From Candidatus Omnitrophota bacterium (GTDB lineage Bacteria; Omnitrophota; Gorgyraeia; Gorgyraeales; Gorgyraeaceae), in NCBI GenBank assembly GCA_042572045.1, contig JBHPFI010000001.1, positions 47,818-111,817 of the forward strand: DNA of 64,000 bases, read 5' to 3'. The notes beneath the pieces are model-generated. The model worked only from the letters and a program-made list of their open reading frames with translations. It was not told the origin of the DNA and ran no database searches. Below are positions 1,886-59,372 of this stretch, piece after piece (position 1 is the first letter of the stretch; the number at the start of each line of letters is the position of its first letter). A program made the position numbers and the translations under genes.

Positions 1886-2509
1886 ATGGACGTAAATCAG
1901 CTCAAACAGCTTCCTCTTATGGGCATAGTGCGGGGGATAGAGCTAGATGTAGTTGAACCGCTTGTCGAAACTGTGATCTCTTCCGGCTTGAAGACCATAG
2001 AGGTCACCATGAACACCCCTAAGGCATCGGAGTTGATTCAACGGATGCTGAAGGTGGCGCAAGGCCGTCTCATAATAGGCGCTGGTACTGTGCTGACAGC
2101 CGATGATTTACAGTCGGCCCTAGATAGCGGCGCGACTTTCATTGTCCTGCCAACATTGGTGCGAGACGTTGTAGAGCGTTGCGTAAAGAATAATATCCCT
2201 GTGTTTCCGGGAGCATTAACCCCCCAGGAAATACACGATGCCTGGCGCGCAGGCGCCACCATGGTGAAGGTATTTCCGGCCAAGTTTTTTGGCCCTAGTT
2301 ATTTTAAGGAAATAAAAGCCCCTTTTCAAAAAATAGAACTCCTTGCCTGCGGTGGAGTTACACCTGGCAATATCCAATCATTTTTCTCTTGCGGCGCATC
2401 TGCGGTCGCCTTTGGCGCAAGCGTGTTTAAAAAAGAGTGGCTTGCAGCAAAAGACTTTTTGCGCATCAGGCAAAGCATAAAAGAGCTTATCGCAGCGATA
2501 GGCCAATGA
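1886..2509 (+). CDS. eda: 2-dehydro-3-deoxyphosphogluconate (KDPG) / 4-hydroxy-2-oxoglutarate aldolase
   Basis: 207 aa. GIVRG...GAGTVL...ACGGV motifs and length are characteristic of Eda-family class I aldolases. Confidence 0.8.
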   Translation: MDVNQLKQLPLMGIVRGIELDVVEPLVETVISSGLKTIEVTMNTPKASELIQRMLKVAQGRLIIGAGTVLTADDLQSALDSGATFIVLPTLVRDVVERCVKNNIPVFPGALTPQEIHDAWRAGATMVKVFPAKFFGPSYFKEIKAPFQKIELLACGGVTPGNIQSFFSCGASAVAFGASVFKKEWLAAKDFLRIRQSIKELIAAIGQ

Positions 2510-2562
2510 ATAATATAGAAATAAAGATAGCCGATTATAGCTTAATACGGAAGATATAAGAA

Positions 2563-2874
2563 ATGGACGAAGCAATATATAAAGAAAATCTCTATAGAAA
2601 ATGGCTGGGAGACGAACGCATATGCAAGAGATGCGGGGCCTGCTGCGGGATAAAGGACAACGATCCTTGTGAGCATTTAAAGAAAGACCCTGACGGGTTA
2701 TATCTGTGCGATATATACGAAAATCGTTTTGGCCTGACAAAAACACTTAGCGGAGAGCCGATATTGTGCGTGCCTATACGCAATATGCTCCACAAGACTT
2801 GGTGGGGACGCAGCCAGTGCGCTTATGTTAAGGCGATCAAGACGCAGGGCATCACCCCTCCCGCGCTAACTTGA
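2563..2874 (+). CDS. hypothetical Cys-rich small protein
   Basis: CKRCGACCGIKDNDPCEH cysteine cluster suggests possible metal binding. No family recognised. Confidence 0.3.
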   Translation: MDEAIYKENLYRKWLGDERICKRCGACCGIKDNDPCEHLKKDPDGLYLCDIYENRFGLTKTLSGEPILCVPIRNMLHKTWWGRSQCAYVKAIKTQGITPPALT

Positions 2875-2903
2875 TAAACCCTCAATGACAAAAGTTGTCC
2901 GTC

Positions 2904-2960
2904 GCAGGCAGATAATCCGCCTCTGGCGGATGGATCAATTTCATGTGTCAAGTTAGCGCG
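2904..2960. repeat. left copy of a ~56-bp inverted repeat (pairs with 3867-3922)
   Basis: gcaggcagataatccgcctctggcggatggatcaatttcatgtgtcaagttagcgcg is near-identical (3-4 mismatches) to the reverse complement of 3867-3922. A further half-site, cccgcgctaacttga at 2858-2872, pairs with the end of this copy. Confidence 0.8.
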
Positions 2961-2993
2961 GGTGTTCTGCTAGGGGAGAGGCAGAAACAACCC

Positions 2994-3410
2994 ATGAAAA
3001 AGATTATTTTCCCGATATTCTTGATCCTCGCCTTGTTTTTATTTCTTTTTTTTAAGAGCAAGGCCTTTTTAGTCTATAAGGTGATAGAGGCAAGAAAGGG
3101 CGTTAGGCATACGTCTATAAGGTACGTGTTGGATTGGGATGTTTTTTTAAATTATGTAAGAGATATTCCCAGAGATATCTTTAAAAAACCCATTTTTAAT
3201 AAAACCGATTCCCCTTATAATCTGGGGTTGAGCGGAAAAGAGATAGAGGGCGTAAAGAAGGTTTTAATGGACATGAAGGCCGCCACAGCAGCGTCCGATG
3301 AAACAGATATAGACGTAAATAAATTAAATCTTCAGGAGAAAATCAGGCATTTTCTGGAGAATTATAAGGGGCCATCTGGTCCTCTTAGTGAAAACTATAA
3401 GGAAGAGTAA
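2994..3410 (+). CDS. hypothetical secreted/membrane-anchored protein
   Basis: Probable true start is MKKIIFPIFLILALFLFLFF (hydrophobic signal/anchor) after a GGGGAGAGG RBS. The track ORF at 2943 starts inside the inverted repeat. Confidence 0.4.
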   Translation: MKKIIFPIFLILALFLFLFFKSKAFLVYKVIEARKGVRHTSIRYVLDWDVFLNYVRDIPRDIFKKPIFNKTDSPYNLGLSGKEIEGVKKVLMDMKAATAASDETDIDVNKLNLQEKIRHFLENYKGPSGPLSENYKEE

Positions 3411-3851
3411 ATGAAGCAGAGAAACGAGCTGATTTTATTATTGGCAATGAGCCTATTCTTTTATAGTCCTCTTTCGGCTGAGGCCGGCATAGGACAGAAG
3501 GTAACCGGCACAATGATTAAGGGTGTGGTCAAAATAGCTGTAGCGACAACAAATATTAAAAGGGCGAAGAAAAAGATTGTCAATAAATTGGACGGAATAA
3601 GCGAGGAAGATTTTAGAGAGAGATACTCTGGGTTTTATGAGTTAATAAAGGACTTGCCTCCGGACCTGAAGAGCGCTTATAAAATTACACCGCATATGAG
3701 CAAAGAACAGATGGTCAGGAATGTAGAATCAGTGGATAAGAAAAAGATATACAGAATAATAGGCCGGATTCCGGACAAGACCATTGCAATGCTTTTCAAA
3801 GAATACCTTAGAGGCGCAGGGTTTAAAGAGACAAAGTCTGAGAAGGATTGA
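3411..3851 (+). CDS. hypothetical secreted protein
   Basis: N-terminal signal peptide MKQRNELILLLAMSLFFYSPLSAEA. Start overlaps the stop of the upstream ORF (TAAATG). Confidence 0.4.
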   Translation: MKQRNELILLLAMSLFFYSPLSAEAGIGQKVTGTMIKGVVKIAVATTNIKRAKKKIVNKLDGISEEDFRERYSGFYELIKDLPPDLKSAYKITPHMSKEQMVRNVESVDKKKIYRIIGRIPDKTIAMLFKEYLRGAGFKETKSEKD

Positions 3852-3866
3852 TTTGGCCTTATACCT

Positions 3867-3922
3867 CGCGCTAACTTGACACATGAAATTGATCCATCCG
3901 CCACGGCGGATTATTCGCCTGC
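3867..3922. repeat. right copy of a ~56-bp inverted repeat (pairs with 2904-2960)
   Basis: cgcgctaacttgacacatgaaattgatccatccgccacggcggattattcgcctgc. An additional half-site, tgtcaagttag, at 3943-3953 mirrors the left-side arrangement. Confidence 0.8.
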
Positions 3923-3976
3923 TGCGCATAACTTTAGTCGTTGACTGATTTGTCAAGTTAGGGGATAATAGATGTA

Positions 3977-4486
3977 ATGAAAAGCGCAAAAATAATAATC
4001 ACATTATTAATAGTTGTTGTATTGGCTTCAATTGCCGCTGGTTATGCCGCAGGGTTTTTTGTTTACAGGCAATATAAAGAGAAGGCAGTATATTTTGATA
4101 AACAGGTACAGCTTACCATGGATAAGTTTGGAGGCATAGAAAGTAATCTAGACGAGCTTTATTCTGCCCTGGATAAAGGCAAGATGGAGAGAGAAAATGC
4201 CTTATCTAAGATAGAGAAGATAAAAGAAGATCTTCAGGGATGGAAAAAAGGGTACGGCGCCACTTTATCAGGGCTTAGAAACGCGATAGATGACTTAAAG
4301 GTCGATAGGCTCAGGATGGCAGTCGAGGGGCTAAAGGGAGACATCAATGATTTTAAAATGACTATGCAAGATTTTGATTTGAAACTCGACGAATACAGAG
4401 GAAAGACGGTGAACCTAAGGGCCGACGGAGAGAATGTTAAAAGTGTAGATCTCGGTAAGATTTCTGTGCGCAAAAGGGGAAAGTGA
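3977..4486 (+). CDS. membrane-anchored coiled-coil protein, hypothetical
   Basis: N-terminal TM helix IIITLLIVVVLASIAAGYAAGFFVY followed by a charged helical region. Confidence 0.4.
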   Translation: MKSAKIIITLLIVVVLASIAAGYAAGFFVYRQYKEKAVYFDKQVQLTMDKFGGIESNLDELYSALDKGKMERENALSKIEKIKEDLQGWKKGYGATLSGLRNAIDDLKVDRLRMAVEGLKGDINDFKMTMQDFDLKLDEYRGKTVNLRADGENVKSVDLGKISVRKRGK

Positions 4487-4600
4487 AAATAAACCCCTCC
4501 CCCTCCAGTTCGCGCGTAAACATATAGAGACGCGTTGGAGTATCTGGTGCCGAGTCGGATGAGAACATTAAACGAATTGAGATAGGCTTCTAAAAAACAA

Positions 4601-4636
4601 GACCTTCACCTTGTAGTTCTGGTGAGGGTTTTTATT
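4601..4636 (+). terminator. rho-independent terminator-like hairpin
   Basis: gaccttcacc...ggtgagg stem followed by tttttattt. A similar element occurs at ~58600-58640. Confidence 0.45.
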
Positions 4637-4705
4637 TGAATGTAATCAGGCCTAAGCTAATTAGGAAAAGATGGTGGATTAGCTAAAATAGTAGAGGAGG
4701 GGTGT

Positions 4706-5071
4706 ATGCTTGCGGTGGTTAAGTTTATAGGTATATTTATGACAAGCATGGGCATTGTCTACGCATTAAGTCCAGAGACAACGAAGCGGTTTATAGCATT
4801 TTGGAAGCAAGGGAAAAGGCTCTATATCGGAGCCATTTTAAACATTTTATTCGGCGTTATCTTTTTGTTAGCTGCTTCAAGGTGCAGGGTGGTAGGGGTC
4901 GTGCTTACCATGGGGGTTTTATCTCTTGCAAAAGGCGTTGTTATCTTAATGTTTGGATTAGAAAAGATGAAAACCAGGCTTAACTGGTGGGACAAGAGAT
5001 CCTCTTTGGTTCTGCGCCTCGTAGGCCTTCTGACTATAACTATCGGAACCTTGCTTATTTATTCTGCATAA
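4706..5071 (+). CDS. small integral membrane protein, hypothetical
   Basis: AGGAGGGG RBS 6 nt upstream. Three to four predicted TM helices. Confidence 0.4.
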   Translation: MLAVVKFIGIFMTSMGIVYALSPETTKRFIAFWKQGKRLYIGAILNILFGVIFLLAASRCRVVGVVLTMGVLSLAKGVVILMFGLEKMKTRLNWWDKRSSLVLRLVGLLTITIGTLLIYSA

Positions 5072-17677: not shown

Positions 17678-17789
17678 GCGCAATAATAAGTTTTCTAACA
17701 TGATCTCTGTGTCCCGCGGCAGAAGATATAGCAGGTTAGAAACGCGGGTTTTTGGCGTAAAAGGCGCCAAAATAGCGCCAGAGGTTTAT

Positions 17790-17818
17790 TTGAAAGATAG
17801 CGTTTTCCATGGTATACT
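17790..17818 (+). promoter_or_regulatory. sigma70-like promoter of giant gene 1 (TTGAAA-17-TATACT)
   Basis: Conserved with the promoters at 38416-38444 and 59344-59372, at the same spacing. Confidence 0.5.
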
Positions 17819-17825
17819 ATATATA

Positions 17826-18050
17826 AGATATATAGCAGCAAGATTCAAGGCATAGCGTATGTACTTTATATGATTAACCAGGCCAGTAATAAGGGCTATT
17901 TTTTTGCCTATATTAAGTTAAACTTTAAAAAACTCTTATATATAGCAGAAAGATAGAAGACATAGCGTATATGCTGTATTGGACTAACTAAGTTGCCGAG
18001 AAAGGCTATTTTTTTGCCTACATTATGATAAACTTTAAAAAACTCTTCAG
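17826..18050 (+). repeat. tandem direct duplication (~112 bp x2) of the giant-gene leader and start region
   Basis: aagggctatttttttgcctatattaagttaaactttaaaaaactctta (17890-17937) repeats ggctatttttttgcctacattatgataaactttaaaaaactcttcag (18003-18050). The ATG is mutated to ATTAAG in the upstream copy. Confidence 0.6.
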
Positions 18051-21000
18051 TATTAAAATTATATCATTAGTTGTAGCTGTAACATTCTTTGTTACATCTA
18101 CATCTTATGGCATAGACATATCTGATAGGATCCACCTACGAACCCCTCTTTTATCTAATTCAAACGAAGGTACAAATAGGTTAAAACAGGCATTATCCTA
18201 TCAGTTAAGGCAGATGCTAGGTCAGGTGGTTAAGTCAGACACTACAGAAGATCTATCATTCTACGGCGAGACAAGGAGGGCTCTTTTATTAGAAGGCGGG
18301 AAGATTCTTTTAAATGAGGAGCTGTATAATAAATATAACTCTGAAAGCATCCTAGAAAGAACAGAGGCCCTTCAGACAATTATACATGAAACAATAGAGG
18401 CTTTGCTCCAGGTAATAAAAGCGGGCCATTCTTCTAGATATCGCTCCATGAAAGAATTAGCCTTAAATCATCTCGTAGAGCTCTATTTTGCCCTTCCCCA
18501 ATCTGATAAAAGTTATAGAGATGAAATTCTTGCCAATGACATCTGGGCTATTGCGTTTGAATACAGGCTAATGGGTGTAATTCTAGAGGATATCCAGGAC
18601 ACTAATCTTAGAGCATTCTTGAAAGAGGCATACGAGATTATTGACGCGCGCGGAAGCCTGTTTGGAGAGGAATTCAGCAATATTTATAGAGTCAAAGAAA
18701 CTGTGATAAATTCCATCAGAAGAGGGATGACTTTTGTCCCTGCGGCAGCTGGAGTAGATGATGTTGACAGGTCGCTTCTGGATGAAGAAATTCATGCAAT
18801 AGTAATAAGAAGAAAATTGAACGCTCGAATTATACAAAGAATGATAAATCGGAAAAAGAGGCATTTATCACCTTACATTGATGAGGTTGACAGGGCAACA
18901 GGTGTCCAGGTTCTTTCCTTAGCCCTTGCAGGAAAAAACCTTGTGGCAAGGCGAACAGCAGAAGATATTGCCCAGAGAGTTGGAGAAAATTTGGGGCATG
19001 CTATTGCTGGTGTAATTTTAGGAGACAGAAAACTGGCAGGAGCAATGAAGGGTATGGAGAGCGCCGCCGAACAAGATATATGGAAAGATGTTCAGCATGT
19101 TGTCTTAGGCGGCGGCGTACTCTCAGGCGAATTTGGGCATGAGGCAACAGCTGTTTCAGAACAGATTCTAAACAAGCACAACCTTGATGTAGAAGTTGAA
19201 CTTTCTGAATGGGGTAGATGGCTTAATCTAGTTGGCCTGGCTCGTTCTGTTGACATATCGAAACTTCGAGAATTATTTCCAGAAGGCGGTAGGGTAAGTT
19301 TTTTGGTTGCAGATTTCGGTAAAACTATGTGGAAACCAGCCGTGGTAGAAGTAGATGTAGATACAGGTAAGGTAGTTATGATAAATGTTCTTGAGAGCGT
19401 TCCTGTTCCTGAGAATGCAGTGCATCCAGTTGCAAGGCGTTGGTGGGTAACTACAAGGCTATTAGATATAATTGTAGCCCGTTTGCCTGTGCGAGCTCGA
19501 GAGTTTTTCTATGATCGTCGTATACAGAGAACTCGGGAATTTACTGAAGACAGGTTGCGGGAATTATATGCGAACCCGCGACTAAACGAATATAATAATT
19601 TTTCTTCTAATATACTTATGCTCACCGTAGGCATTGATGGATTGGACGATGGTCTTTTGCAAGAGGTATTGGGTAAGAAGGATACCACAGAGACAATAAC
19701 AGGAATATTGTGGGATACAAAGGCAAGCGCCCTGGCTCTTACAGGAAGGTACAAGGAGCCCACGGCCGTTATGGTTGTTGGTACGGGTGCTATCTTAACA
19801 TATGTTCCTGAGACAAAAGGAGAAGTCCTTTCTTTGGCAGATAGATTTATTGTTACAGAAGGACGAGGTGGAATAACCGAGATGGCCGCCCTACAAAAGG
19901 AAATCAAGTCTCCAGATGTTGATGCGCAAGGCAGGGATGAAAACGGAAAATTTACAGAAATCCCTGGGAAAAGTCCAGAATATATGAGGGATTTTGTAGC
20001 GACCCATTATGGAAACACCCCTTTTACCATTGCACAATATATTAAAGATTGGGAAATAGCTAACCCCGGAAGAAGATTGCCGCAAAGCACAGCCTATAGT
20101 GACTTAACTAAAGCAAGGGCAAACGGATGGATTGAAAAACGTGAAAAAGCTCATTATAGACTTACCGATAGCGGTTCTTCTTCGGCTTTAGGCTGTTTTG
20201 GAGTTCAGGTTTCACAGGACATATATGTAGTATCTGATGTCATGATAGATACATTTGGTGGGTCTAATTTTCGTGCAATTCATGTTGATAAAAACACCCA
20301 GCCATTATCACTGGCTGACTATGAGCGTTTTCTAGAAAAGTTAGGAACTGTTAGTCCGTCTTTACACAACCAACTTATGGAAGAGCCAGATCAGGGATTT
20401 CAACAGGTTAATTTAGTCTATTTTACCCCCGGACATATTCTTTTAAGAGCTAGTCGGACAAAAAATCCTGAGAGTATTCGTGACGACCTTCGTCATGAAT
20501 ATTTTGAACAAATGTTACGTATGGCCCCCCTAGAGGAGAGAGAAGCTTTCTCATTATTATATGAAAGGCTCTATACGGCCTATCCTGATTTTACGGCAGG
20601 CATCGATGTTCTTTTTGGAGAATTAGAACCTTATGCAGATCAGATTGGCCAAGAAATTTTTTGGGCAGACTTCTGGACTTATGTGGCTTGGCCAGATTTT
20701 TTGGGGCAAGAGTTTTCCGAGGATATTTTAAGGCGGCTTAGTGCGCAAGCACAAACAGATCCTATAATTGCTAGATCTCTTCCCGTAGTTTTAGAATCTC
20801 TTCAAGGACTCAGAGAACAATCGGAGCGGGCCGCTGATTTGACTGTTTCACAGCTTATCGAAACATTTATTGTTGAGGAGCAACGCCAATATGATTTACT
20901 CATTCCAGAAGCGCAGGATTCAAATATAAAGCTGGCGATGTTTGATGTAGGTGGGGTTTTATTTAAAGTAGATTTTCGTAGAAGCGTTGAAAAATTAAAA

Positions 21001-24000
21001 GAATTTTGCCCCAATCTAGTGGTAGAAGCTTCAGAGCAAGGAGAGATAGACGACTACATCTATAGTTTGTTTAGCGATAGACAAAGCGGTTATCTTGGAT
21101 ATCTATTGGAATCAGGTCGGATGGGACCAGAAGAATTTTTTCAAAGGGTGATAGATGTCTTGAAAAGAGAAGGCGTAGAAATAAGTCTGAGATATAGTGA
21201 GTTTATTGAAGTATGGAACGAGGCGTACGAAGGCCCTATAGAAGAAAACATTGCTTTATTTAAGACTTTTATTCTCAAGGGTTACACCGTATATGTACTT
21301 TCTAATAATAATCCTCTCCACAAGGAACTTGTGCTGTCTCTACTTGAGAGGGAAGGGATCTCTTTTAGCCGCAGACATTTTATATCTTCCCATGAGCTTA
21401 GAATGCTTAAAGGCGAAGACACAGAAACGTTTGAGCAGGTTTTGAAGGATAAACGTATTGGGGTTGAGGTTATTAGTGGTAGTAACTTTAGAGCAAGGGT
21501 TTCTCCGGAAGAGATCATATTTTTTGACGATTCACTAGTTAATGTCAGGATGGCAACTAGCGCTAACATAAATGCTCTACATTATACAGGAGAAAAAGGA
21601 TTCGCTCAGAAAGTTAGTGATGTATTGATGCAGCCTGTTGAAAAACCACGGGCTCTTCGAGGTCTTGTTGATAAATACGTGCAAGCAAGAAAAGCCTTAA
21701 AAGCTCAAAGAGAAAGATTTGAGGACATGGTAGTTGATTTACCAGTTCGAGAACGGGTTGATCTTGAAAGGTTAAGAACATTGGGTAGCGAGTTAGGACT
21801 TGATGAGTTAGAGCAAGAAGCAGAAGCCCTAAAAGAAGAACTAAGTAAATATAGAGCTCCTGATGGGCATATATCCTGGTGGCATTATGGAAGTCAAGAA
21901 GCTAATGACTGGCCCACAAGTTATTCTAGAGATAGAGAGCTACCAGCAGATGAGGTTTGGGATATGGAAAGAGAGCCGTCAACAGATGAAGTGTGGATAG
22001 GTTTGGAACAAGTAGCTCTTGGCGCCAAGGTTATTGCTGTTGATTTTGGAAGAACGCTCGTACCTACCAATGCTCGTATTATAGCAGTTGATGAGTTTCT
22101 GTTAAACTGCTTATCAGTCATGGAACTACTTTTAGTTGCTGATAGTGAATTGCGCATTTATATAATTTCTGGAGCAGCTGTTAGAGAAAGAATAGAAGAG
22201 GTGATAATGTTTTTTCCTAGTCGCTTTCATATGTTAAGTACAAGTACAAGGTTTAGGGTTAGCGAAACAGTATATGATAAAGGCCAGGAGGTGCAAGAAA
22301 TATTACATGAGTCTAATCTACCGGAAAGTTCAGTAATCGCTATAGGCGACAGCGAAGAAAATGATCGCCCAATGGCCCTTAGTGAAGGTTATTTTGTTCA
22401 AGTGTATCCTCATACGCGATCTGTTAGCCCAAATGCATTAGATGTACTAGGACGCATCCTAGATATAAAGGGCCAGATTTTTGTACAGCGTGAAGACATA
22501 GAAGATCAAGATTTAGGTGCAATGGGTAAGTTTTTTATCAAAGATGCTTCTTATGATCATGGGAGGAGTACACTTTCTGTTAGGTTAATTGATATGGAAA
22601 AGCCTCAAAGAAACTTAGAGAGCGTAAAGATAAATGCTCAACGTGCTCCTCCAGGATTGATAAATGAAACATTGCAGCAACTGATGGTGATGAGTACGAA
22701 CCCAATGGTAGGGAGGATTATACGTTGGTACACAGATGAATTTGTAAGAAGTGGAGACGCCCTTATCCTCGAAGATAATAAAAGAGATCTATTAGGTCTA
22801 GGCAAGAGAAATATTATTGCAGTATCACGCCATCTAATAAATAACCCCGTAGCTTTATTCCATGAAATAGCCCATGCATATTTTGACGCACACCCTAACG
22901 AAATAGCCCGCATAGAAAGACAGCTTGCCAAGGGAAGGTTAAGATGGGTAAATTCAAAAGATCAGTCACTTAGGACTCATTATGTACTAAGGGCATTCCA
23001 GAGGCAGATATTCAAAGAAAAAGATAGATATCTTACCCAGCTTATAAATAACGTTAAGGAGACCAGAGAATCAGTATCCAGAAGAGAGTTGTTTTATTTG
23101 GGAGACAATTTAATAGAGCTAAAGCAGCTAATACCATTGGCCGAAGCTCTTGAAAGTGCATTAGGGCAGATTGATGATGAAAGGGCAAGAGCAATGCTTT
23201 CAGGAGGCTTTTCAGTAGATGCTGGTGGATATAGCATTGATAATCCAGGCGAACATTTATTGGACATTGTTATAAGAGATGAAACTGGTTCTAAGGTGGC
23301 TGCAATAAAGGTTTGGCCCCTTAAACAAGCAGATGGCGTATCGTATGATAAAAAGGGAGTGTTTTTAGAATGGTTTGGCATAGAGCCATCATGGATGAAA
23401 GGAAGAGGGGTGTCTGGACCAACACTATACCAGGCATTAGCAAGATTTTTGCATGAATTAGGTTATGAGGAGATATATGCCAATATAAAATGGGGTTCTG
23501 ATGATTTCTGGGAAAATATGGGTTTTGAACCTGCAGAAGAAAGTATATATATACCTGGTAGCATACCTGGTTTTTATATAGAAAAACCAGGGGTTATAAG
23601 AGGTGGTAATTGTCCTACGATTGCGCAACTGCATAAAGGAATAATTACAGATCATGTTGCTGAAGGCAAAGCTTCAATGTTAAACATCAGAGGCTTAACA
23701 CCTGAACAGCACGATATGCTTAATCAAGCCTTAGGGACCTTCTTTGTAGGTTTAAACCAGGTACGCAGTGATATAGATGTCCTTGGGGAAGAAGAACTTG
23801 GTAGAATAGACCCGGAAGGTGTTTTAGGAGAAGTAGAAGACCTCAGGGCTTATAGATTCACTAGGGAACAGTTACAACAAGCACTTGAAGATATAGATGC
23901 CCTTCCAGAGGATATAGAATATATCATAGCTAACCTTATTGCCCATCCAGGTAGATTCAGGGATACAAAGGGTATCCCAAGGGCAACAAATCTTTTTATC

Positions 24001-27000
24001 CTGGATGAACACTATAATATCCTTACTCAATTAGAATCTAGTCTACAGGCTCAATGGGCAAGACATGAGCGTGCACATTTAGATGATATCACGCGTTCAG
24101 AGCAAGATATACAAATTGATCATCCAATTGATAGTGTAGTAGGATCTTTAAGAATCAGGATTGCAGAAGCCCGGTTGCTTTCCGAAACCGATAAACTTGA
24201 TGAATATTTTCTAAAAGAAGTTTGGCCTGATGATTTGACCCAGAAGATCGAGCGAATAATCAATGGGAGGCCTATTACCACTATATTCGGGAAGAACTTT
24301 TTGTTTGTAGGTCGATTTCTTTTTATTACACAAACAGAACGGGGCAAACACAAAGATGAGCTTCAGGATTTTAAGGATTCTGTTATTATATGTAACCTTT
24401 CTTATAGTGAGCACAGCCCTTTTCTTAACTTTGAATGGGGGATTAATACACTTTTAGCAGTTCAGATGCTCCAGGCATATGAAGATGAGGTCAGAGGTAA
24501 AACACTTCTTGATGCTGGTAGCGGTTCGGATGCAGTACTGGGGATGGTGGCTCATAGATTAGGTACAAAACAGGTTTTCTGCGTTGAAGGAAATGGAGAA
24601 AAGGCTAGGGGATCAAGGACATTTTTGGAGATAAACGGAATCGACCAGGGGGTTGTAAGAGTAGTGCATGCTGAGTTCTCTGAACTATTAAGCTCTCCGC
24701 AATTAATAGATAAGCCGGATATTGTAATCGCCAATCTTTCTTATAATGGCTTTTATGCAGAAGACAGAAGCGTACCTCGCATTTCTGATTTAGAAGGGCT
24801 TAAGAACTGGCACAGCCAATTAGCGAGAAGATTTTCTCCTGAACTTTATTTTCTCTGTGGAGCTGTGGAGGAATTCCCTAGTAGAAAACCAGCGGGATGG
24901 ATAGAAGTAGCCAAAGGAGCGATGGATGAAGCCGGCTATAAGATTGCTTTAGAAGAGAGTTTGTACCGCGTAAGGGAAGACGAATCAACTACTTTTGTAT
25001 TAGAGCCTGCGATTGGCCAGACTCAGAAGACGCCCGATGAAATTCTGAGAAACATCATGAGGAGTAGAGATGAAAATAGAATTATCGCCCTTATCGATGA
25101 ACTTAGAAAGGCAACATATGATTCTATAGAGGATACAGATATCTATCTAAACAGAGCCCAAGTACATCTATCTAAGTTAAGAATAGAAAGGCGTAGACGT
25201 AAAAGAACGCTACTTGATACACGAGCTGAATTAGATGCGCTGATACGTGAAGCATCAAAGAGGCCCTTTGGTTTTTCTGTGCAAGAGGTAGAGGGGGGAG
25301 ATCTATTTATAGTAGTCAATGGACAGGTTCCTTTGGAAGATGAAGATTATAAAATAATACTATATAATTTGGTATCATTAAAGAAAATTGTTTCTGAATG
25401 GGGCTCTGATAGAGGCGAAGAATTGATAGATTATGTTAGAAGAAGGACGCTTTCTGGATTTCTTGAGATCGACGACATCAGTCATGAGCAGGGATTTTTA
25501 AGCTTAAAAATTGGCGGTTGTGTTTCAGTGACTATAGATATAGCAACCTTAGAGATAGTTTCACAGTCTGGATTGACATTTTTGCCAAAAGCGGATTTTT
25601 ACGACAGTGGCGTGGTGCGCGAATTCGGGGATTACGTTGCAGGACTTATGGAGTCGGAGCTTGGATTCGATGGAGAAGCAAATATGGGGCTAGATACTAT
25701 TTTGTCTTGGGAGTATGGCGCAAGGGCAGCGAGCAAAAAAGTTGACAGTATACAAGGAGCGAAGTCTTTTGAATTAGACGCTGCTTCTGCAGATGAAGAA
25801 TTGCCTAGTGAGGGGGCCGCCGAAGGCGAAGACGGAAAAACCCAAGCCGAGATAGCTAAAGACAAATTGCTCGGGGAAGAATTTGCTCCTTTGGATCATC
25901 CGCACAATATCGCTAATAAGTTAAACGATTGGTATTATCAAGCGTTTGGAGGGGCGGCTTTCAGAAAAACGGAAAGAGTCGGTACCCTTGAAGAAGCAAG
26001 CGCAAAAAAAAGCGCAGAGGAATTTTATGACACATTGAAGATTTTGGATAGCCAAGGTAGCTTGCTAGAAGAGATTGTAGTTCAAGAATGGGGCGCGGGA
26101 GATGGTTATTCTGCCGCTGTTTTTCTAAGTAGACTAAAAGAGCTTGATGAAGAAAATGGCACTAGCTATTATCAAAGATTACGATACGTTCTGATCGATA
26201 AATCCTCAACAGCCGCTGAGGATATAAAAACCAATCCTTATTTATTAGAGCATGCAAGAGTAATAGATACGCGTGTGATGGATGTTTTAGAGGGCGGAGA
26301 GAAGCTTCGCGAGATATTATTAATAAGGGCCAACTCCCTCTTGAATTCACTTCCTAAAAAGATGTTTAAGATTACGAATGGCGACATTTATGAATTATAT
26401 ACAAGGCCATATCTTGATATGGATGAGGTAGAGGTATTGGTAGATAGTAGCGGCAGGAAATACGGGATCGAAGATATGCGGCGCATACTTAGTGAAGAGG
26501 ATGTAGAAGCTATGCGCCGACTCGGCAGAGAGTTCTTCAGGCGCATAAAGTGGGAGGAAAGATACGAGCCGATTACAAGTACAGAGGAATTGCCCTATGG
26601 AGAATATCTGGAAAGCTTGGTTAGGGATGGTTTTGAGGGAAGCATTGCCCTGGATCTAGGTGCACTAACATGCCTAAATAATATGTTGATACAGCTATCC
26701 TCTCACGGCAGCTTACGGATATGTGATGCAGGCGCCGTAGAGTATCCCGAGATAGGAGAAGTAGCTGGCAAATTATTCAGATTCTATGGAGCCATCTATT
26801 CTCCTGTAAATTTTCATTTTTTAAATGAAACGGCCCCTGTTTCAGTAGGAGCAGTAAGTCAGGTCGCTTATGGCGGCGAGTATGTGCAAAAGAGAATTGG
26901 GTTGGTGAAAGTTCTCAATCTTATCCTAAAAGATTTTGAAACGTTTAAAAGATATTTCAATGCAGAAACTTTTTTTACGCCACCATCTCTAACAGTCCCT

Positions 27001-28536
27001 GAAGGTCAAAGAACAGGGTTATTGGAAACATCGGATACCCTCATGCAAGAATACGGGTTTAGCGAAGAAGGTCTGGAAGTATTTAAACAAAGATTGGCGG
27101 ATAGTAGACAGAATATGCATCGTCGACGGATAGATGAGATAGCTCTTTCGTTTGAGGAAACAGGAAATTTTGTAGGTAATTACGTAGATGCATATATATA
27201 TTGGGTATATAGACGGATGGGAGCAGAAAGAAATAATTTACTGGAAAGCCAGAGGTGGCTAATTCCCGGCTCTTGGCAGGACTTAGCCGCTTACGATCAA
27301 TATAAAGAATTTACTAAATTTTGTACTATTTATAATTTTTACGGTGCCGTAGATGCTATTTTTGATGACATGGAAAGCTTTTTCCCTGGATTAAAGGTGT
27401 TTACTGTTAGGCCGGATAAGACTAGTGGCCCATCTTTATTAGAAACTTCCACGAACGAACTTGATATTGATACGCAAGGCAGGGATGGACAGGGAAGATT
27501 TGCAGAACTCCCTGGGAAAAGTCCGGAATATATGAGGGATTTTGTAGCGACCCATTATGGAGACAGCCCTTTTACTATTGCTCAATATATTAAAGACTGG
27601 GAGGCAGCTAATCCTGGGAGAAGATTGCCGCGTAGTACAGCATATAGCGATTTAAGGAGAGCAAGGGCAAATGGATGGATAGAGGGATCCAAAGAAGGAG
27701 CTCATTTAGATTTAGACGAGTTAATGAGATATTCTTCGATAGGCGGGAGTGCACTCAACCATGAGCTGGTTTTTCATATCAAAGGCAGTGATAGTAAGGA
27801 TCCGGAAGTGGCTAGAGATGAGAATTTAAGAAATATGCAAGTAATTGCAGTAGAATCAACTCTAGACCCAGAGTTTTTTGGCGAGGATCATACTACGCAC
27901 ACATTGTTATTTATAGATACTGAAAAAGACGAGGTGGTTGGTTACGCTGGAGTTGCAATACAAGGGGAGCGCATTATTGGCGGTTCAGGCAAGGTTTTTG
28001 ACTCATTTAGAAATCATGGTTACATGGGGAGAGCCGTAAAGCTTTTACTTTTAAGCCGTCAAACAAAAGAATGGTTCTCGTCTTACTCATTAGAAAAGCC
28101 GGCAGAAAGAATGTATCAAAGAATTGGAGAAGACTCGCGATTTATCATAACATCTGTCAGGCCTTCAGGATACCTCTTAAGGCTTAAGGCCGAGCAAGTC
28201 GCTATGAGTGAGTTACAGCAAACAGTTGTACTATTCTCAGGAGATGAAGCGCAAGATAACCTTGATGGCTTTAGGCAGGCATTAGATGAGCTAGATGAGA
28301 CCAATACAGCTGTAGTAATAGTAGATTCAGAAGAACAGCAGAGATTTTTCATAGAGCACAGAGGAGAACTAGGAAGATTTTATATTAGAACACCGGGACA
28401 ATTAGGTTTAGCTAGCTTTGATTTAGAACAGGTCATGACTACGATAATGGGTATAGATAATCTTAGATGCGTTCCTCTCACAGATTCCCTCTGCGACACC
28501 TTTGAATCCCTTAAGCAGGCCAGGGGCCAGGTGTAG
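18025..28536 (+). CDS. giant secreted multidomain protein, paralog 1 (3503 aa)
   Basis: Uninterrupted 10.5-kb ORF. N-terminal signal-like MINFKKLFSIKIISLVVAVTFFVTSTSYG. Internal motifs: HAD (MFDVGGVLF...YVLSNNN...FFDDSLVNV ~20930-21600), HExxH (FHEIAHAYF ~22861), GNAT-like (~23290-23530 and ~27895-28130), PrmA-like methyltransferase (LLDAGSGSDA...DIVIANLSY ~24440-24800), second SAM methyltransferase (QEWGAGDG ~26000-26350). The repeated ~70-aa module occurs twice, and the C-terminal domain is conserved. Confidence 0.85.
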   Translation: MINFKKLFSIKIISLVVAVTFFVTSTSYGIDISDRIHLRTPLLSNSNEGTNRLKQALSYQLRQMLGQVVKSDTTEDLSFYGETRRALLLEGGKILLNEELYNKYNSESILERTEALQTIIHETIEALLQVIKAGHSSRYRSMKELALNHLVELYFALPQSDKSYRDEILANDIWAIAFEYRLMGVILEDIQDTNLRAFLKEAYEIIDARGSLFGEEFSNIYRVKETVINSIRRGMTFVPAAAGVDDVDRSLLDEEIHAIVIRRKLNARIIQRMINRKKRHLSPYIDEVDRATGVQVLSLALAGKNLVARRTAEDIAQRVGENLGHAIAGVILGDRKLAGAMKGMESAAEQDIWKDVQHVVLGGGVLSGEFGHEATAVSEQILNKHNLDVEVELSEWGRWLNLVGLARSVDISKLRELFPEGGRVSFLVADFGKTMWKPAVVEVDVDTGKVVMINVLESVPVPENAVHPVARRWWVTTRLLDIIVARLPVRAREFFYDRRIQRTREFTEDRLRELYANPRLNEYNNFSSNILMLTVGIDGLDDGLLQEVLGKKDTTETITGILWDTKASALALTGRYKEPTAVMVVGTGAILTYVPETKGEVLSLADRFIVTEGRGGITEMAALQKEIKSPDVDAQGRDENGKFTEIPGKSPEYMRDFVATHYGNTPFTIAQYIKDWEIANPGRRLPQSTAYSDLTKARANGWIEKREKAHYRLTDSGSSSALGCFGVQVSQDIYVVSDVMIDTFGGSNFRAIHVDKNTQPLSLADYERFLEKLGTVSPSLHNQLMEEPDQGFQQVNLVYFTPGHILLRASRTKNPESIRDDLRHEYFEQMLRMAPLEEREAFSLLYERLYTAYPDFTAGIDVLFGELEPYADQIGQEIFWADFWTYVAWPDFLGQEFSEDILRRLSAQAQTDPIIARSLPVVLESLQGLREQSERAADLTVSQLIETFIVEEQRQYDLLIPEAQDSNIKLAMFDVGGVLFKVDFRRSVEKLKEFCPNLVVEASEQGEIDDYIYSLFSDRQSGYLGYLLESGRMGPEEFFQRVIDVLKREGVEISLRYSEFIEVWNEAYEGPIEENIALFKTFILKGYTVYVLSNNNPLHKELVLSLLEREGISFSRRHFISSHELRMLKGEDTETFEQVLKDKRIGVEVISGSNFRARVSPEEIIFFDDSLVNVRMATSANINALHYTGEKGFAQKVSDVLMQPVEKPRALRGLVDKYVQARKALKAQRERFEDMVVDLPVRERVDLERLRTLGSELGLDELEQEAEALKEELSKYRAPDGHISWWHYGSQEANDWPTSYSRDRELPADEVWDMEREPSTDEVWIGLEQVALGAKVIAVDFGRTLVPTNARIIAVDEFLLNCLSVMELLLVADSELRIYIISGAAVRERIEEVIMFFPSRFHMLSTSTRFRVSETVYDKGQEVQEILHESNLPESSVIAIGDSEENDRPMALSEGYFVQVYPHTRSVSPNALDVLGRILDIKGQIFVQREDIEDQDLGAMGKFFIKDASYDHGRSTLSVRLIDMEKPQRNLESVKINAQRAPPGLINETLQQLMVMSTNPMVGRIIRWYTDEFVRSGDALILEDNKRDLLGLGKRNIIAVSRHLINNPVALFHEIAHAYFDAHPNEIARIERQLAKGRLRWVNSKDQSLRTHYVLRAFQRQIFKEKDRYLTQLINNVKETRESVSRRELFYLGDNLIELKQLIPLAEALESALGQIDDERARAMLSGGFSVDAGGYSIDNPGEHLLDIVIRDETGSKVAAIKVWPLKQADGVSYDKKGVFLEWFGIEPSWMKGRGVSGPTLYQALARFLHELGYEEIYANIKWGSDDFWENMGFEPAEESIYIPGSIPGFYIEKPGVIRGGNCPTIAQLHKGIITDHVAEGKASMLNIRGLTPEQHDMLNQALGTFFVGLNQVRSDIDVLGEEELGRIDPEGVLGEVEDLRAYRFTREQLQQALEDIDALPEDIEYIIANLIAHPGRFRDTKGIPRATNLFILDEHYNILTQLESSLQAQWARHERAHLDDITRSEQDIQIDHPIDSVVGSLRIRIAEARLLSETDKLDEYFLKEVWPDDLTQKIERIINGRPITTIFGKNFLFVGRFLFITQTERGKHKDELQDFKDSVIICNLSYSEHSPFLNFEWGINTLLAVQMLQAYEDEVRGKTLLDAGSGSDAVLGMVAHRLGTKQVFCVEGNGEKARGSRTFLEINGIDQGVVRVVHAEFSELLSSPQLIDKPDIVIANLSYNGFYAEDRSVPRISDLEGLKNWHSQLARRFSPELYFLCGAVEEFPSRKPAGWIEVAKGAMDEAGYKIALEESLYRVREDESTTFVLEPAIGQTQKTPDEILRNIMRSRDENRIIALIDELRKATYDSIEDTDIYLNRAQVHLSKLRIERRRRKRTLLDTRAELDALIREASKRPFGFSVQEVEGGDLFIVVNGQVPLEDEDYKIILYNLVSLKKIVSEWGSDRGEELIDYVRRRTLSGFLEIDDISHEQGFLSLKIGGCVSVTIDIATLEIVSQSGLTFLPKADFYDSGVVREFGDYVAGLMESELGFDGEANMGLDTILSWEYGARAASKKVDSIQGAKSFELDAASADEELPSEGAAEGEDGKTQAEIAKDKLLGEEFAPLDHPHNIANKLNDWYYQAFGGAAFRKTERVGTLEEASAKKSAEEFYDTLKILDSQGSLLEEIVVQEWGAGDGYSAAVFLSRLKELDEENGTSYYQRLRYVLIDKSSTAAEDIKTNPYLLEHARVIDTRVMDVLEGGEKLREILLIRANSLLNSLPKKMFKITNGDIYELYTRPYLDMDEVEVLVDSSGRKYGIEDMRRILSEEDVEAMRRLGREFFRRIKWEERYEPITSTEELPYGEYLESLVRDGFEGSIALDLGALTCLNNMLIQLSSHGSLRICDAGAVEYPEIGEVAGKLFRFYGAIYSPVNFHFLNETAPVSVGAVSQVAYGGEYVQKRIGLVKVLNLILKDFETFKRYFNAETFFTPPSLTVPEGQRTGLLETSDTLMQEYGFSEEGLEVFKQRLADSRQNMHRRRIDEIALSFEETGNFVGNYVDAYIYWVYRRMGAERNNLLESQRWLIPGSWQDLAAYDQYKEFTKFCTIYNFYGAVDAIFDDMESFFPGLKVFTVRPDKTSGPSLLETSTNELDIDTQGRDGQGRFAELPGKSPEYMRDFVATHYGDSPFTIAQYIKDWEAANPGRRLPRSTAYSDLRRARANGWIEGSKEGAHLDLDELMRYSSIGGSALNHELVFHIKGSDSKDPEVARDENLRNMQVIAVESTLDPEFFGEDHTTHTLLFIDTEKDEVVGYAGVAIQGERIIGGSGKVFDSFRNHGYMGRAVKLLLLSRQTKEWFSSYSLEKPAERMYQRIGEDSRFIITSVRPSGYLLRLKAEQVAMSELQQTVVLFSGDEAQDNLDGFRQALDELDETNTAVVIVDSEEQQRFFIEHRGELGRFYIRTPGQLGLASFDLEQVMTTIMGIDNLRCVPLTDSLCDTFESLKQARGQV
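19915..20136 (+). repeat. conserved ~70-aa module, copy 1 (DVDAQGRDENGKFTEIPGKSPEYMRDFVATHYG..PFTIAQYIKDWE.ANPGRRLP.STAYSDL..ARANGWIE)
   Basis: Near-identical to 27463-27684 and 44704-44926 (~90% nt identity). Confidence 0.8.
27463..27684 (+). repeat. conserved ~70-aa module, copy 2 (within giant gene 1)
   Basis: DIDTQGRDGQGRFAELPGKSPEYMRDFVATHYGDSPFTIAQYIKDWEAANPGRRLPRSTAYSDLRRARANGWIE. Confidence 0.8.
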
Positions 28537-32613: not shown

Positions 32614-32693
32614 AAATCTTACAGTACAAAATATCCAAAATTATCCCCATAAAACCTGAAATATTATGTTAGTTGGTAATCCCTCCGAGCTTA

Positions 32694-32722
32694 TTGACTA
32701 TTTTAAAGGCTAGTAGTAAAAT
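32694..32722 (+). promoter_or_regulatory. conserved promoter module (TTGACT-17-TAAAAT), copy 1 of 3
   Basis: cttattgactatttt[a/g]aagg... is shared with 48753-48781 and 58850-58878. Confidence 0.45.
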
Positions 32723-32812
32723 AAGGACAATAAGTGAGAACCACGGGGCGGGGTTCGAGATTTAGAAGATAGCTTATGTAAGATGGCTATCTAGATAAAG
32801 GAGGTATCAAAA

Positions 32813-38252: not shown

Positions 38253-38415
38253 CCGTTCTCCCGCTTTCTAAAAGCAGTATCATGTTTTTCCCTTCAAGCA
38301 TTTCTTAAAAAATCTATTGACAGGAAAGAGTTTTCATAGTATATTTATAATTTTTTATAAAATATGTAAATAATGTATTGGGGCTCATGCCGAAGGACGG
38401 GTACCAGGAATTTGC

Positions 38416-38444
38416 TTGAAGGATAACGTTTTCTGTGATATACT
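38416..38444 (+). promoter_or_regulatory. sigma70-like promoter of giant gene 2 (TTGAAG-17-TATACT)
   Basis: Paralogous to 17790-17818 and 59344-59372. Confidence 0.5.
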
Positions 38445-38546
38445 TTATATTAATCAGATATACATAGCAGGGATATTTAGGCCATAGAATATATAGATAT
38501 ATGTATTAACCAAGCCGTTAAGAAAGGCTATTTTTTTGCCTACATT

Positions 38547-48674: not shown

Positions 48675-48752
48675 AACTTACACTAGAAAACATCTAAAAA
48701 CACATCTCCATAAAAACTGAAATATCCACTAGCCAGCAACTCTTAGGGCTTA

Positions 48753-48781
48753 TTGACTATTTTGAAGGTGAGAGGTAGAAT
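48753..48781 (+). promoter_or_regulatory. conserved promoter module (TTGACT-17-TAGAAT), copy 2 of 3
   Basis: Immediately upstream of the M28 peptidase gene. Same module as 32694-32722 and 58850-58878. Confidence 0.45.
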
Positions 48782-48786
48782 AAATA

Positions 48787-50631: not shown

Positions 50632-50633
50632 AC

Positions 50634-55466: not shown

Positions 55467-55514
55467 TCTAAACAAGTCCTTGCCTCTGGTGTCTAAAAAT
55501 AGTATCATGTAAAT

Positions 55515-58522: not shown

Positions 58523-58849
58523 CAACCACGCTTTTGCAGTGTAAACTATAAATACAGCTAAATAAAGTCCCGTGTTTGAAGGGGGAACCTGGACAATAAA
58601 AAAGTAAAACCTTCGCGAGAGAAATCTTGTGAGGGTTTTTATATTTTAGGCCCTTAAAGTCGTACGTTCGAAGGGGCTCACTGCGACTCAAAACAATTAA
58701 AACCTTCTTTGTTAAACCAACAAAGGAGGCTTTAATGTTTATAGTTAGGGTTTTGAGGGTGGTTTTGGTAGTAATTATTTTCTTAATGGCCTATCTTCCT
58801 ATCTCTATAAATCCTGGAATATTCGCAAATTGGTGATTCTTGGCACTTA

Positions 58850-58878
58850 TTGACTATTTCGAAGGGGAAGGGTAGAAT
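58850..58878 (+). promoter_or_regulatory. conserved promoter module (TTGACT-17-TAGAAT), copy 3 of 3
   Basis: cacttattgactatttcgaaggggaagggtagaat, 28 nt upstream of the 58906 gene. Confidence 0.45.
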
Positions 58879-58905
58879 GAATGCGATAGGAGGAAAGGAC
58901 GCAAG

Positions 58906-59322: not shown

Positions 59323-59343
59323 AAAAGCGCGCCAGAACATTAT

Positions 59344-59372
59344 TTGAAAGATAGCGTTTTCTATGGTATAAT
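59344..59372 (+). promoter_or_regulatory. sigma70-like promoter of giant gene 3 (TTGAAA-17-TATAAT)
   Basis: Perfect -10 element. The conserved leader follows up to the ATG at 59464. Confidence 0.55.

Follow-up and report, generated by a model that had tools for sequence, protein, structure and literature searches.

Two opposite copies of a palindromic element of about 100 nt around a pair of small genes in a Candidatus Omnitrophota bacterium

Two copies of one imperfect palindrome of about 100 nt lie in opposite orientation around a pair of small genes in the 64,000-nt stretch of Candidatus Omnitrophota DNA analyzed here (hereafter, the window). Element A occupies positions 2860 to 2962 of the forward strand (~103 nt), and element B (3865 to 3964; ~100 nt) is the same element on the reverse strand. 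The inverted repeat formed by them is far beyond chance, and two opposite copies of a palindrome describe it better than an inverted repeat plus half-sites, as the first-pass annotation had put it. We suggest, with a probability of about one half, that A and B are two copies of a lineage-specific repeat of the ERIC, Correia or MITE kind, located in consecutive intercistronic spacers. The Omnitrophota are a phylum known almost entirely from metagenomes, and to our knowledge the literature searched contains no description of an element of this kind from the phylum. If this reading is right, A and B are one more routine entry among the small palindromic intergenic repeats already catalogued, while the retention of a stem by compensatory changes at one junction suggests that the element or elements have been recruited as intercistronic RNA structures.

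The two elements share 85.4% identity over 96 nt (2866-2960 vs. 3961-3867; E = 2e-22). The inverted repeats of ~56 nt with three or four mismatches that had been reported at 2904-2960 and 3867-3922 are correct as far as they go, and their extent was understated. The inner half of A (left arm, 2924-2960) and the inner half of B (right arm, 3867-3903) are complementary at 37 of 37 positions, and the segment between these perfect arms measures 906 nt rather than 960 bp. Outward of them, the homology is 80% (2882-2921/3905-3944), and none of the 14 differences between A and B is located in the inner 37-nt half; a mismatch-free run of this kind has a probability of ~0.001 at the terminus and of 0.008 anywhere in the alignment.

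Each copy folds back on itself. The basal stem of A joins 2860-2876 to 2946-2962 through 15 Watson-Crick pairs, one G.T and one A-T pair, and that of B joins 3871-3881 to 3951-3961 (11/11 paired), so that the basal stems range from 11 to 17 bp. An inner hairpin is conserved between the two copies with a variable loop, being ATCCGCC-TCT-GGCGGAT at 2915-2931 in A and ATCCGCC-AC-GGCGGAT at 3896-3911 in B. The outer half-sites noticed earlier do exist, at coordinates different from those first given: CCCGCGCTAACTTGA is located at 2860-2874 (not 2858-2872) and pairs 15/15 with 2948-2962, while TGTCAAGTTAG is located at 3951-3961 (not 3943-3953) and pairs 11/11 with 3871-3881. The element ends are CGCGCTAACTTGAYA, and the 14-mer GCGCTAACTTGACA, with up to two mismatches, is confined to the four ends of A and B (4 matches vs. 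0.31 expected, a count reached by no shuffle). No reading frame within A or B is conserved or matches any protein.

This anatomy resembles several known families of small repeats. MITEs are defined as short (<500 bp) non-coding elements (PMC10969869); their medians are 104 bp in size and 7-8 copies per genome (PMC11602168). A and B are non-coding, have about the same size (~103 and ~100 nt) and carry terminal inverted repeats of 15/15 and 11/11 positions, within the range of ~4-30 bp for MITEs; the flanking direct repeats of MITEs are absent. ERIC elements are imperfect palindromes of ~127 bp, so that together with A and B they span ~100-127 nt, and the long hairpin formed by an imperfect palindrome of ~100-130 nt is found here too. 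ERIC elements are found between genes or behind them, in spacers that are transcribed, as those of A and B probably are. Like A and B, they occur in both orientations and in shorter versions, and they are believed to influence mRNA stability or cleavage through an RNA hairpin (PMC3184786). However, A and B have no sequence similarity to ERIC (blastn, 5,426 complete E. coli genomes, no match), belong to another phylum, lack the TA flanks and target duplication, and number two in 64 kb against 30 to 700 ERIC copies per genome (PMC10969869). They are ERIC-like in working at best, and not members of the family.

The Correia elements (CREE) of Neisseria have 100-150 nt, terminal inverted repeats and hairpins as well, and are co-transcribed with their neighbors. 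ERIC and Correia elements alike are imperfect palindromes transcribed together with genes, with effects on the stability of the mRNA and on its cleavage by RNases (PMC3184786, PMC2649163); CREE are RNase III substrates and can create promoters at their ends (PMC2649163), and B likewise has a promoter-like -35 in its outer end. The 26-bp terminal inverted repeats, TA duplication, IHF site and hundreds of copies of CREE are not seen in A and B. The REP, BIME and REPIN sequences are also intercistronic palindromes of higher GC content that can stabilize upstream mRNA, and REPINs are inverted doublets forming a hairpin of ~100 nt. REP units are short palindromes tagged at one end with GTAG or CGTC (PMC3733652), whereas the arms of A and B (11-15 nt, reading CGCGCTAACTTGA) are neither tagged nor individually palindromic, and no RAYT-like (Y1 transposase) match was found among the scanned ORFs of the window.

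Multiplicity weighs against the repeat-family reading, since dispersed copies define such families and here the two copies in 64 kb are adjacent. They are the only copies in the window by blastn and nhmmer, and its only long inverted repeat. That two copies should lie exactly around one gene pair is also an odd coincidence for random insertion. Rfam has no family at A or B, either at gathering thresholds over the whole window or at E <= 10 over 2700-4100. A search of the GTDB representative genomes for the TIR-gap-TIR pattern returned no relative; its sole match, a palindromic repeat of Ammoniphilus sp. YIM 78166, has in common with A and B the 13-14-nt end CCCCTAACTTGACA alone, belongs to an unrelated repeat of ~234 bp and was judged coincidental. 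The JGI metagenomes were queried with a 20-mer out of the perfect half (with a degenerate stem pattern, variants like that of L018, described below, might have come up) and gave no relative, the five matches being all one unrelated sequence hit by chance. No copy was found in IMG/VR, plasmids or phages, and the six-frame translations of A and B, compared with 5.8 billion proteins in order to catch copies concealed in called ORFs, gave nothing at E <= 10.

Target-site duplications are absent at A and B, apart from trivial palindromic tetramers: CGCG/GCGC at A and TTAA in L018 are part of the stem, and B has none. Such duplications of MITEs fade in old copies (PMC10969869); therefore, their absence is weak evidence. 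No transposase or recombinase domain was found among the ~40 ORFs scanned with Pfam or NCBIfam across the 64 kb, a scan that left out two giant ORFs and one of 1282 aa, and within this scope the earlier statement that the window holds no such gene is borne out.

The genes of the locus are all co-directional on the forward strand, in the order cysteine-cluster gene, A, ORF1, ORF2, B, coiled-coil gene and terminator. The first (2563 to 2874) encodes a YcgN-like CxxCxxCC protein of 103 aa with 36 homologues, identical to ACFL0P_00275 of a Candidatus Omnitrophota MAG. Its stop codon falls in the 5' arm of A, whose first 15 nt are the last codons and the stop of the gene (PPALT*), and in the C-terminal alignment its tail exceeds those of the homologues by 6-10 aa. 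ORF1 (2994 to 3410; 138 aa) has an N-terminal hydrophobic anchor and belongs to no known family, its own family being small (18 representative clusters at E <= 1e-3). ORF2 (3411 to 3851; 146 aa) encodes a secreted, all-helical, Lys-rich protein, also of no known family, with a signal peptide ending in AEA; it is conserved in Omnitrophota (10 homologues with signal peptide, 55-66% identity), and its AlphaFold model is helical and weak (mean pLDDT 62.8). Both ORFs have homologues in other Omnitrophota, and the two small genes recognized inside the repeats in the first-pass annotation are real. Downstream of B, a membrane-anchored coiled-coil protein of 169 aa is encoded at 3977 to 4486, followed by a DUF2065-like small membrane-protein gene (4706 to 5071, forward strand), whose linkage to ORF2 recurs in two further contigs of Omnitrophota.

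Then, could ORF1 and ORF2 have been carried in by the repeats? In TIME-COMPs, two inverse small elements with terminal inverted repeats bracket genes, and A and B similarly bound ~0.9 kb with two complete genes (PMC13367494). A composite MITE-bounded mobile cassette of this type, or a passenger element that brought ORF1-ORF2 in, is nevertheless hardly credible here. TIME-COMPs have foreign cargo, 5-bp direct repeats and Tn3-type inverted repeats, whereas A and B enclose native genes, and no direct repeats were found outside their outermost ends. The GC content of ORF1-ORF2 (0.386) is near that of the window (0.413). In the closest relative, L018 (830 bp; ENA ERZ27227317), which provides the sole orthologous comparison, the order is cysteine-cluster gene, a spacer of 46-52 nt and an ORF1 homologue (63% identity over 60 aa). 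On the other side, the DUF2065-like gene is linked to the ORF2 homologue in L016 (1915-2277, 44% identity) and lies directly upstream of it in L017 (1292-1651, 41% identity). Because both this linkage and the left junction in L018 are conserved, ORF1 and ORF2 were evidently not brought in by the repeats, and the mobile-cassette reading is refuted. By these comparisons the bracketed genes are judged to be native residents of the locus, not cargo. Of the MITE-like passenger proposed in the first-pass annotation, the MITE-like anatomy fits (~100 nt, non-coding, terminal inverted repeats, two orientations, a size variant in L018), while the passenger or excisable cassette is contradicted.

The element itself is absent from the more distantly related loci L004-L006, L012-L017, L019 and L020, which carry a cysteine-cluster or ORF2 homologue alone. 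At the B site, the spacer after ORF2 has 16 nt in L016, and L017, L019 and L020 are without the element too, the ORF2 identity in these loci being 58-66%. A 183-aa gene of L016 in the same position as the coiled-coil gene has no detectable sequence similarity to it. The A site in L018 is not empty and contains a shorter homologous hairpin of 45 nt.

The hairpin of L018 has a 15-bp stem (-24.5 kcal/mol on the sense strand vs. -17.0 on the antisense strand) and agrees with A at 10 of 13 positions in each arm. The three arm differences are all two-sided compensatory changes, despite heavy silent-site divergence (third-codon identity between the window and L018 of 0.56 in the cysteine-cluster gene and 0.47 in ORF1); consequently, sequence comparison indicates that the stem at the A site is maintained between two species. 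The G.U wobble on the sense strand and the overlap with the stop codon are common to both, while the rest of the L018 spacer is not alignable with that of the window, and its hairpin is without the entire inner 37-nt half. The arms of A, B and L018 were aligned and counted separately, as L018 is internally shorter and defeated MAFFT alignment. Over the three, pairing extends to 86% of cells, with two-sided changes at 5 of 19 pairs, a result reached by just 4 of 500 shuffles, and slid registers are 26-41% paired. It should be noted that the compensatory changes may instead reflect a palindromic mobile family, different members of which were inserted independently at almost one position, the stem beginning 30 nt later in the cysteine-cluster gene of the window than in that of L018, and that the comparison is one orthologous pair in which L018 has just 830 bp.

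As RNA, A folds at -48.7 kcal/mol (z = -6.9) and B at -32.7 kcal/mol (z = -2.75), and the two elements probably act as mRNA hairpins. In the repeat-family explanation, the maintained feature would be the hairpin stem within a polycistronic mRNA, where, placed between cistrons, it may act on stability, processing or the coupling of translation. A possible geometry for coupling places the stop codon of the preceding gene in the 5' arm, which is the case at the A site, and part of the Shine-Dalgarno sequence of the following gene in the 3' arm, which is the case in L018 and B. As a general scheme, it holds in L018 and partly in B, where the Shine-Dalgarno-like AGGGGA of the coiled-coil gene (3959-3964) overlaps the outer 3' arm and the 7-nt window UAGGGGA (3959-3965) has a mean pairing probability of 0.71. 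It does not hold in A: the pairing probability at the Shine-Dalgarno of ORF1 is 0.2, that is, unsequestered by A, and translational coupling is therefore not a uniform theme. The second copy would have arisen by transposition-like or other DNA-level copying, which would explain the opposite orientation, and the inverted repeat bracketing two genes would be the appearance of two opposite copies of a self-complementary element. The identical inner halves may stem from gene conversion between nearby inverted copies or from constraint on that half.

Alternatively, A and B could pair with each other over ~95 bp in the mRNA and loop out ORF1-ORF2, giving an RNase III substrate like the stems flanking 16S and 23S rRNA, by which both cistrons would be uncoupled or silenced. 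The energies are in line with such a duplex: A and B cofold at -153.1 kcal/mol vs. -81.4 kcal/mol for the two local hairpins, and when the entire 1151-nt region is folded, the MFE structure places 92/103 nt of A and 88/97 nt of B in it. Correia elements are in fact bound and cleaved by RNase III (PMC2649163). However, since any inverted repeat within one transcript has such a property, the cofold is not evidence of selection. Hairpin A would form first during transcription, and the ribosomes translating ORF1 and ORF2 would separate the two arms. Without the inner 37-nt half, L018 conserves the local stem and not the long partner; moreover, perfect Watson-Crick identity with no G.U pair looks like homogenization at the DNA level. 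We regard a long-range processing stem as quite improbable.

The same 37-bp identity could have served inversion. In an invertible two-gene switch, the perfect repeats would be crossover sites between which 2961-3866 flips, driven by a recombinase whose gene lies elsewhere or by RecA using the 37 bp of identity, and the two envelope-protein genes would be turned antisense to the operon, resulting in phase variation. Recurrent recombination or conversion would maintain a perfect 37-nt repeat despite diverged outer halves (P ~0.001), secreted or envelope proteins are typical targets of phase variation, and segments between inverse MITE copies occur in both orientations in TIME-COMPs, for which inversion of the enclosed segment is documented (PMC13367494). 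Invertons such as fimS and hin, too, have inverted repeats around a segment of ~1 kb by envelope-protein genes, as is the case here. But in invertons the repeats are compact core sites for a recombinase, and there is usually an invertase gene close by and a promoter inside, whereas each arm here is itself a 100-nt self-complementary palindrome, no promoter logic is evident, and neither a tyrosine or serine recombinase nor an adjacent cognate invertase was found among the ~40 ORFs scanned in the 64 kb. The GC and AT skews of the enclosed segment are those of its flanks, and the 830 bp of L018 contain a single hairpin of the same family, at the left site. Because the segment has the same orientation in L018, L016 and L017, the present orientation would be the long-term one. 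Such a switch is distinctly unlikely. Considered jointly, the view that the pair is a dedicated device, whether the 37-bp inversion switch or the ~95-nt A-B pairing that processes the ORF1-ORF2 message, with the hairpin between the cysteine-cluster gene and ORF1 conserved across species as part of it, is in our judgment doubtful.

Two further readings treat A and B as protein-binding or recombination sites. Paired operators for a regulator of ORF1-ORF2 had been proposed, and the inner halves are indeed identical and face the gene pair symmetrically, with an 11-nt motif, CTAACTTGACA, present four times. However, this is very improbable, because 69 nt separate the half-sites within each element and neither A nor B was found to adjoin a regulator gene; in addition, L018 keeps the pairing of the stem and not its sequence, and structure is therefore favored over a sequence-specific site. 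A CALIN-like pair of integron attC sites is suggested by the ends, which read ...CTAAC and GTTAG... and so contain the triplets AAC and GTT of the R''/R' boxes, by the size of ~100 nt within the attC range, and by the upstream stop codon inside the element, as in many cassettes. Against it, the attC boxes (RYYYAAC/GTTRRRY) are matched at 5 of 7 positions each, and the basal stem is a continuous duplex of 15-17 bp with no unpaired central spacer, bulges or extrahelical bases. In CALINs at least two sites point the same way, each after a cassette ORF, whereas A and B face opposite ways. The genes that they flank are syntenic and conserved, no integrase was found in the scanned ORFs of the window, and the version in L018 has only 45 nt. 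Rejected on structure and orientation, the attC reading has next to no probability.

The elements matter for gene annotation as well: in the upstream gene, the stop and the five codons before it come from A, which also contains a misleading start ahead of the true one of ORF1. The promoter-like sequence TTGACT-17-GATAAT at 3941 to 3969 (forward strand; 10/12 consensus matches) has its -35 within the outer half of B and its -10 at the edge of B, 7 nt before the ATG at 3977. It is a lead only, since the region has 3 such sites vs. a shuffle mean of 4.8, not above shuffles. No terminator-like site was found within 2400-4700 by the consensus scan. A canonical intrinsic-terminator-like hairpin with a T-run, which the scan missed because its loop is longer than 8 nt, can be read from the sequence at 4600 to 4637 (forward strand), after the coiled-coil gene, and likely marks the end of the transcription unit containing A and B. 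A similar copy of this hairpin is located at 58599-58642.

The gene pair ORF1-ORF2 (2994-3410 and 3411-3851, + strand), encoding a membrane-anchored product and a secreted, helical product conserved in Omnitrophota, is bracketed by element A (2860-2962) and element B (about 3865-3964), both imperfect palindromes, B being the reverse complement of A. The inverted repeat reported around the pair by the first-pass annotation does exist: the copies share 85.4% identity over 96 nt (2866-2960 versus 3961-3867, blastn E = 2e-22), with an inner core of 37 identical nt (2924-2960 versus 3867-3903), the sole long inverted repeat in the 64 kb window, and outer parts about 80% identical. The stem of A pairs CCCGCGCTAACTTGA (2860-2874) with TCAAGTTAGCGCGGG (2948-2962) at 15 of 15 positions and is prolonged by one G.T pair and then one A-T pair, and that of B pairs CTAACTTGACA (3871-3881) with TGTCAAGTTAG (3951-3961) at 11 of 11. 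The motif GCGCTAACTTGACA, with up to two mismatches, matches the window four times against 0.31 expected, and all four matches are the stem arms. A small hairpin, ATCCGCC-loop-GGCGGAT, is common to both copies, with constant stem and variable loop. The outer half-sites claimed earlier are present as the far arms of each copy, although their coordinates were wrong by 2 and 8 nt. The structure is better described as one self-complementary element of about 100 nt, in two copies of opposite orientation. All 14 differences between the copies are confined to the outer 59 columns (P of about 0.001 for a clean terminal run, 0.008 for any such run), which is compatible with gene conversion between two inverted copies this close together, or with a constrained inner half.

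The genes around A and B are all on the + strand: a YcgN-like CxxCxxCC (Cys-cluster) protein gene (2563-2874), ORF1, ORF2, a membrane-anchored coiled-coil protein gene (3977-4486), and, beyond a terminator-like hairpin with T-run (about 4600-4637, +), a DUF2065-like membrane protein gene (4706-5071). The closest available relative, the 830-bp contig L018, has the Cys-cluster gene (85% protein identity), about 50 nt of spacer and then an ORF1 homologue (63%). ORF2 homologues lie near a DUF2065-like gene in two further contigs, adjoining it in L017 and, in L016, in the same order as in the window with only 16 nt after ORF2. No direct repeats were found flanking the whole A-to-B structure, and in GC content and strand skew the ORF1-ORF2 segment matches its surroundings. 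The gene pair is thus native to the locus, judging from gene order and composition, and the proposal of an excisable passenger cassette is contradicted. A composite transposon bounded by MITEs, against which the same synteny speaks, is extremely improbable. An inverton, whose segment between the repeats would flip, is also unlikely, because the present orientation is the long-term one and because the about 40 window ORFs scanned showed no domain of a transposase, an integrase or an invertase; within that set, the earlier remark that the window lacks a recombinase or transposase holds.

In one more distant Omnitrophota relative (L004/L005, 6344-6894), a PhdYeFM/ParE toxin-antitoxin pair takes the place of ORF1-ORF2 after the Cys-cluster gene, so the region downstream of this gene is variable across the phylum. 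The C-terminal tail of the window's Cys-cluster protein (2845-2874) extends 6-10 aa beyond any of 15 homologues, and its PPALT* (last five codons and stop) is encoded by the 5' arm of A. Read from an in-frame ATG within A, ORF1 gains a spurious 17 aa at its N terminus (2943-2993; 155 versus 138 aa); the database protein begins MKK.

Within the L018 spacer, the A site is occupied by a hairpin of 45 nt, whose stem (CCTTAACGTGATACT / AGTGTCACGTTAAGG) has 15 bp and encloses 15 nt. In both sequences the 5' arm encodes the final A-L-T-stop of the Cys-cluster gene, and the stems share a sense-strand G.U wobble. The stems agree at 10 of 13 positions in each arm, and each of the three differences is matched on the opposite arm (C-G to U-A, G-C to C-G, U-A to G-C). 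The two stems are, by this likeness, homologous; the L018 loop (CAGTCAAGG...GCAGG) is also similar to the element's outer half, and the hairpin looks like an internally shorter version without the 37-nt inner half. When the arms of all three hairpins (A, B, L018) are counted, 86% of cells are paired, with two-sided changes in 5 of 19 pairs, a result reached by only 4 of 500 shuffles (slid registers are 26-41% paired) and, with three sequences only, indicative at most. Third-codon positions of window and L018 agree at only 56% for the Cys-cluster gene and 47% for ORF1; beyond the stem, the spacer is not alignable. Since the stem was kept while silent positions and the rest of the spacer diverged, it is maintained rather than decaying. 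It should be noted that the two hairpins could be independent insertions of related palindromic elements, which would likewise look compensatory; the stem also starts 30 nt (10 codons) later within the Cys-cluster gene in the window than in L018.

What are these elements? Of the readings weighed, the strongest, at about an even bet (roughly 0.5), makes them an orphan small palindromic intergenic repeat, of the ERIC, Correia, RUP and MITE class, lying in two orientations within consecutive intercistronic spacers. Their length suits the class, whose median across 183,232 surveyed genomes is 104 bp (PMC11602168). Its members also have terminal repeats and yield stable transcripts (PMC10969869), and their effects on mRNA are on record (PMC3184786, PMC2649163). 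The earlier MITE-like suggestion is partly supported: size and terminal repeats agree with it, while no target-site duplication is seen at the elements and sensitive blastn and nhmmer found no third copy in the window. Membership in the named families fails on sequence, duplication is lacking, and multiplicity amounts to two copies in the 64 kb; what is proposed, then, is that A and B work like small palindromic repeats, not that they belong to a known family.

Rfam, searched with gathering thresholds and again with E <= 10, has no family at the elements. The upstream Cys-cluster protein is identical to ACFL0P_00275 of a Candidatus Omnitrophota MAG. Across 185,579 representative genomes the terminal-repeat pattern had no match but a palindromic repeat of Ammoniphilus, which is unrelated, and in JGI metagenomes the perfect-half 20-mer met a single locus, by chance. 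No match to the element turned up in IMG/VR, PLSDB plasmids, INPHARED phages or E. coli genomes, and among 5.8 billion predicted proteins none was matched by six-frame translations of A and B at E <= 10. There is no positive evidence of a dispersed family in the window or these collections. The repeat of Ammoniphilus sp. YIM 78166 (L001 1693-1777, L002 2485-2569, L003 711-794) is a perfect-stem palindrome, CCCCTAACTTGACATC...GATGTCAAGTTAGGG, inside a dispersed repeat of about 234 bp of a Firmicute, and has a 13-14-nt end in common with the outer end of B; the likeness is probably coincidental, since the specificity of a query is effectively halved when it is palindromic.

For such a palindromic repeat, the maintained stem would probably act as an RNA hairpin on the stability, processing or coupling of adjacent cistrons. 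The L018 hairpin is predicted at -24.5 kcal/mol as sense RNA versus -17.0 antisense, and A and B are marginally more stable as sense, which lends modest support to an RNA-level structure. In window and L018 alike, the A-site 5' arm includes the upstream stop codon. The next gene's Shine-Dalgarno falls partly in the 3' arm, with pairing probabilities of 0.67 in L018 and 0.71 in B, whereas that of ORF1 is not sequestered by A (0.2); translational coupling is thus possible but not a uniform theme. If A and B share a transcript, they would pair with each other: the cofold reaches -153 kcal/mol versus -81 for the local hairpins taken separately, and the 1151-nt region folded whole adopts this long-range duplex. 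Such pairing comes with any inverted repeat and is alone no evidence of function; we regard a long-range RNA processing stem as a doubtful reading. Paired operator sites, also suggested earlier, are very unlikely, and attC sites, with wrong structure and orientation, are the least credible reading of all. Terminators were rejected, since both elements lack a T-run while canonical terminators are used elsewhere in the genome.

Lying across B's outer end, 7 nt ahead of the next ATG, is a promoter-like TTGACT-17-GATAAT; such sites are no more frequent in the region than in shuffles. A 36-nt promoter-like block (TTGACT, 17 nt, TAGAAT/TAAAAT) is repeated ahead of three genes (32689-32724, 48748-48783, 58845-58880), suggesting that the organism uses sigma-70-type promoters; its TTGACT hexamer also occurs in the outer half of B. 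Similar terminator-like hairpins at 4592-4635 and 58599-58642 are 73% identical, each followed by TTTTTAT, and are missed by a consensus terminator scan, their loops exceeding 8 nt.

Elsewhere in the window, a c-di-GMP-I-GGC riboswitch aptamer (RF03167, 53254-53336, - strand), at 60.3 bits just above its gathering score (59), is located upstream of a minus-strand ORF, 52288-53175, which has a tandem 6-18-nt repeat (52327-52602) and no Pfam match. Three paralogous very large ORFs (18025-28536, 38547-48674 and 59464-63312; 3503, 3375 and 1282 aa) are spaced by about 20.5 kb, with conserved repeats upstream of each (17769-17830, 38395-38456, 59323-59384) and a second upstream set (17983-18089, 38505-38611, 59422-59528); the two giant ORFs are 83-85% identical at their 5' and 3' ends. 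In addition, a 70-nt direct repeat (50611-50680 and 55492-55561, 91% identical) spans the upstream region and first codons of a 554-aa ORF (50634) and of a PD-(D/E)XK nuclease-family ORF (55515).
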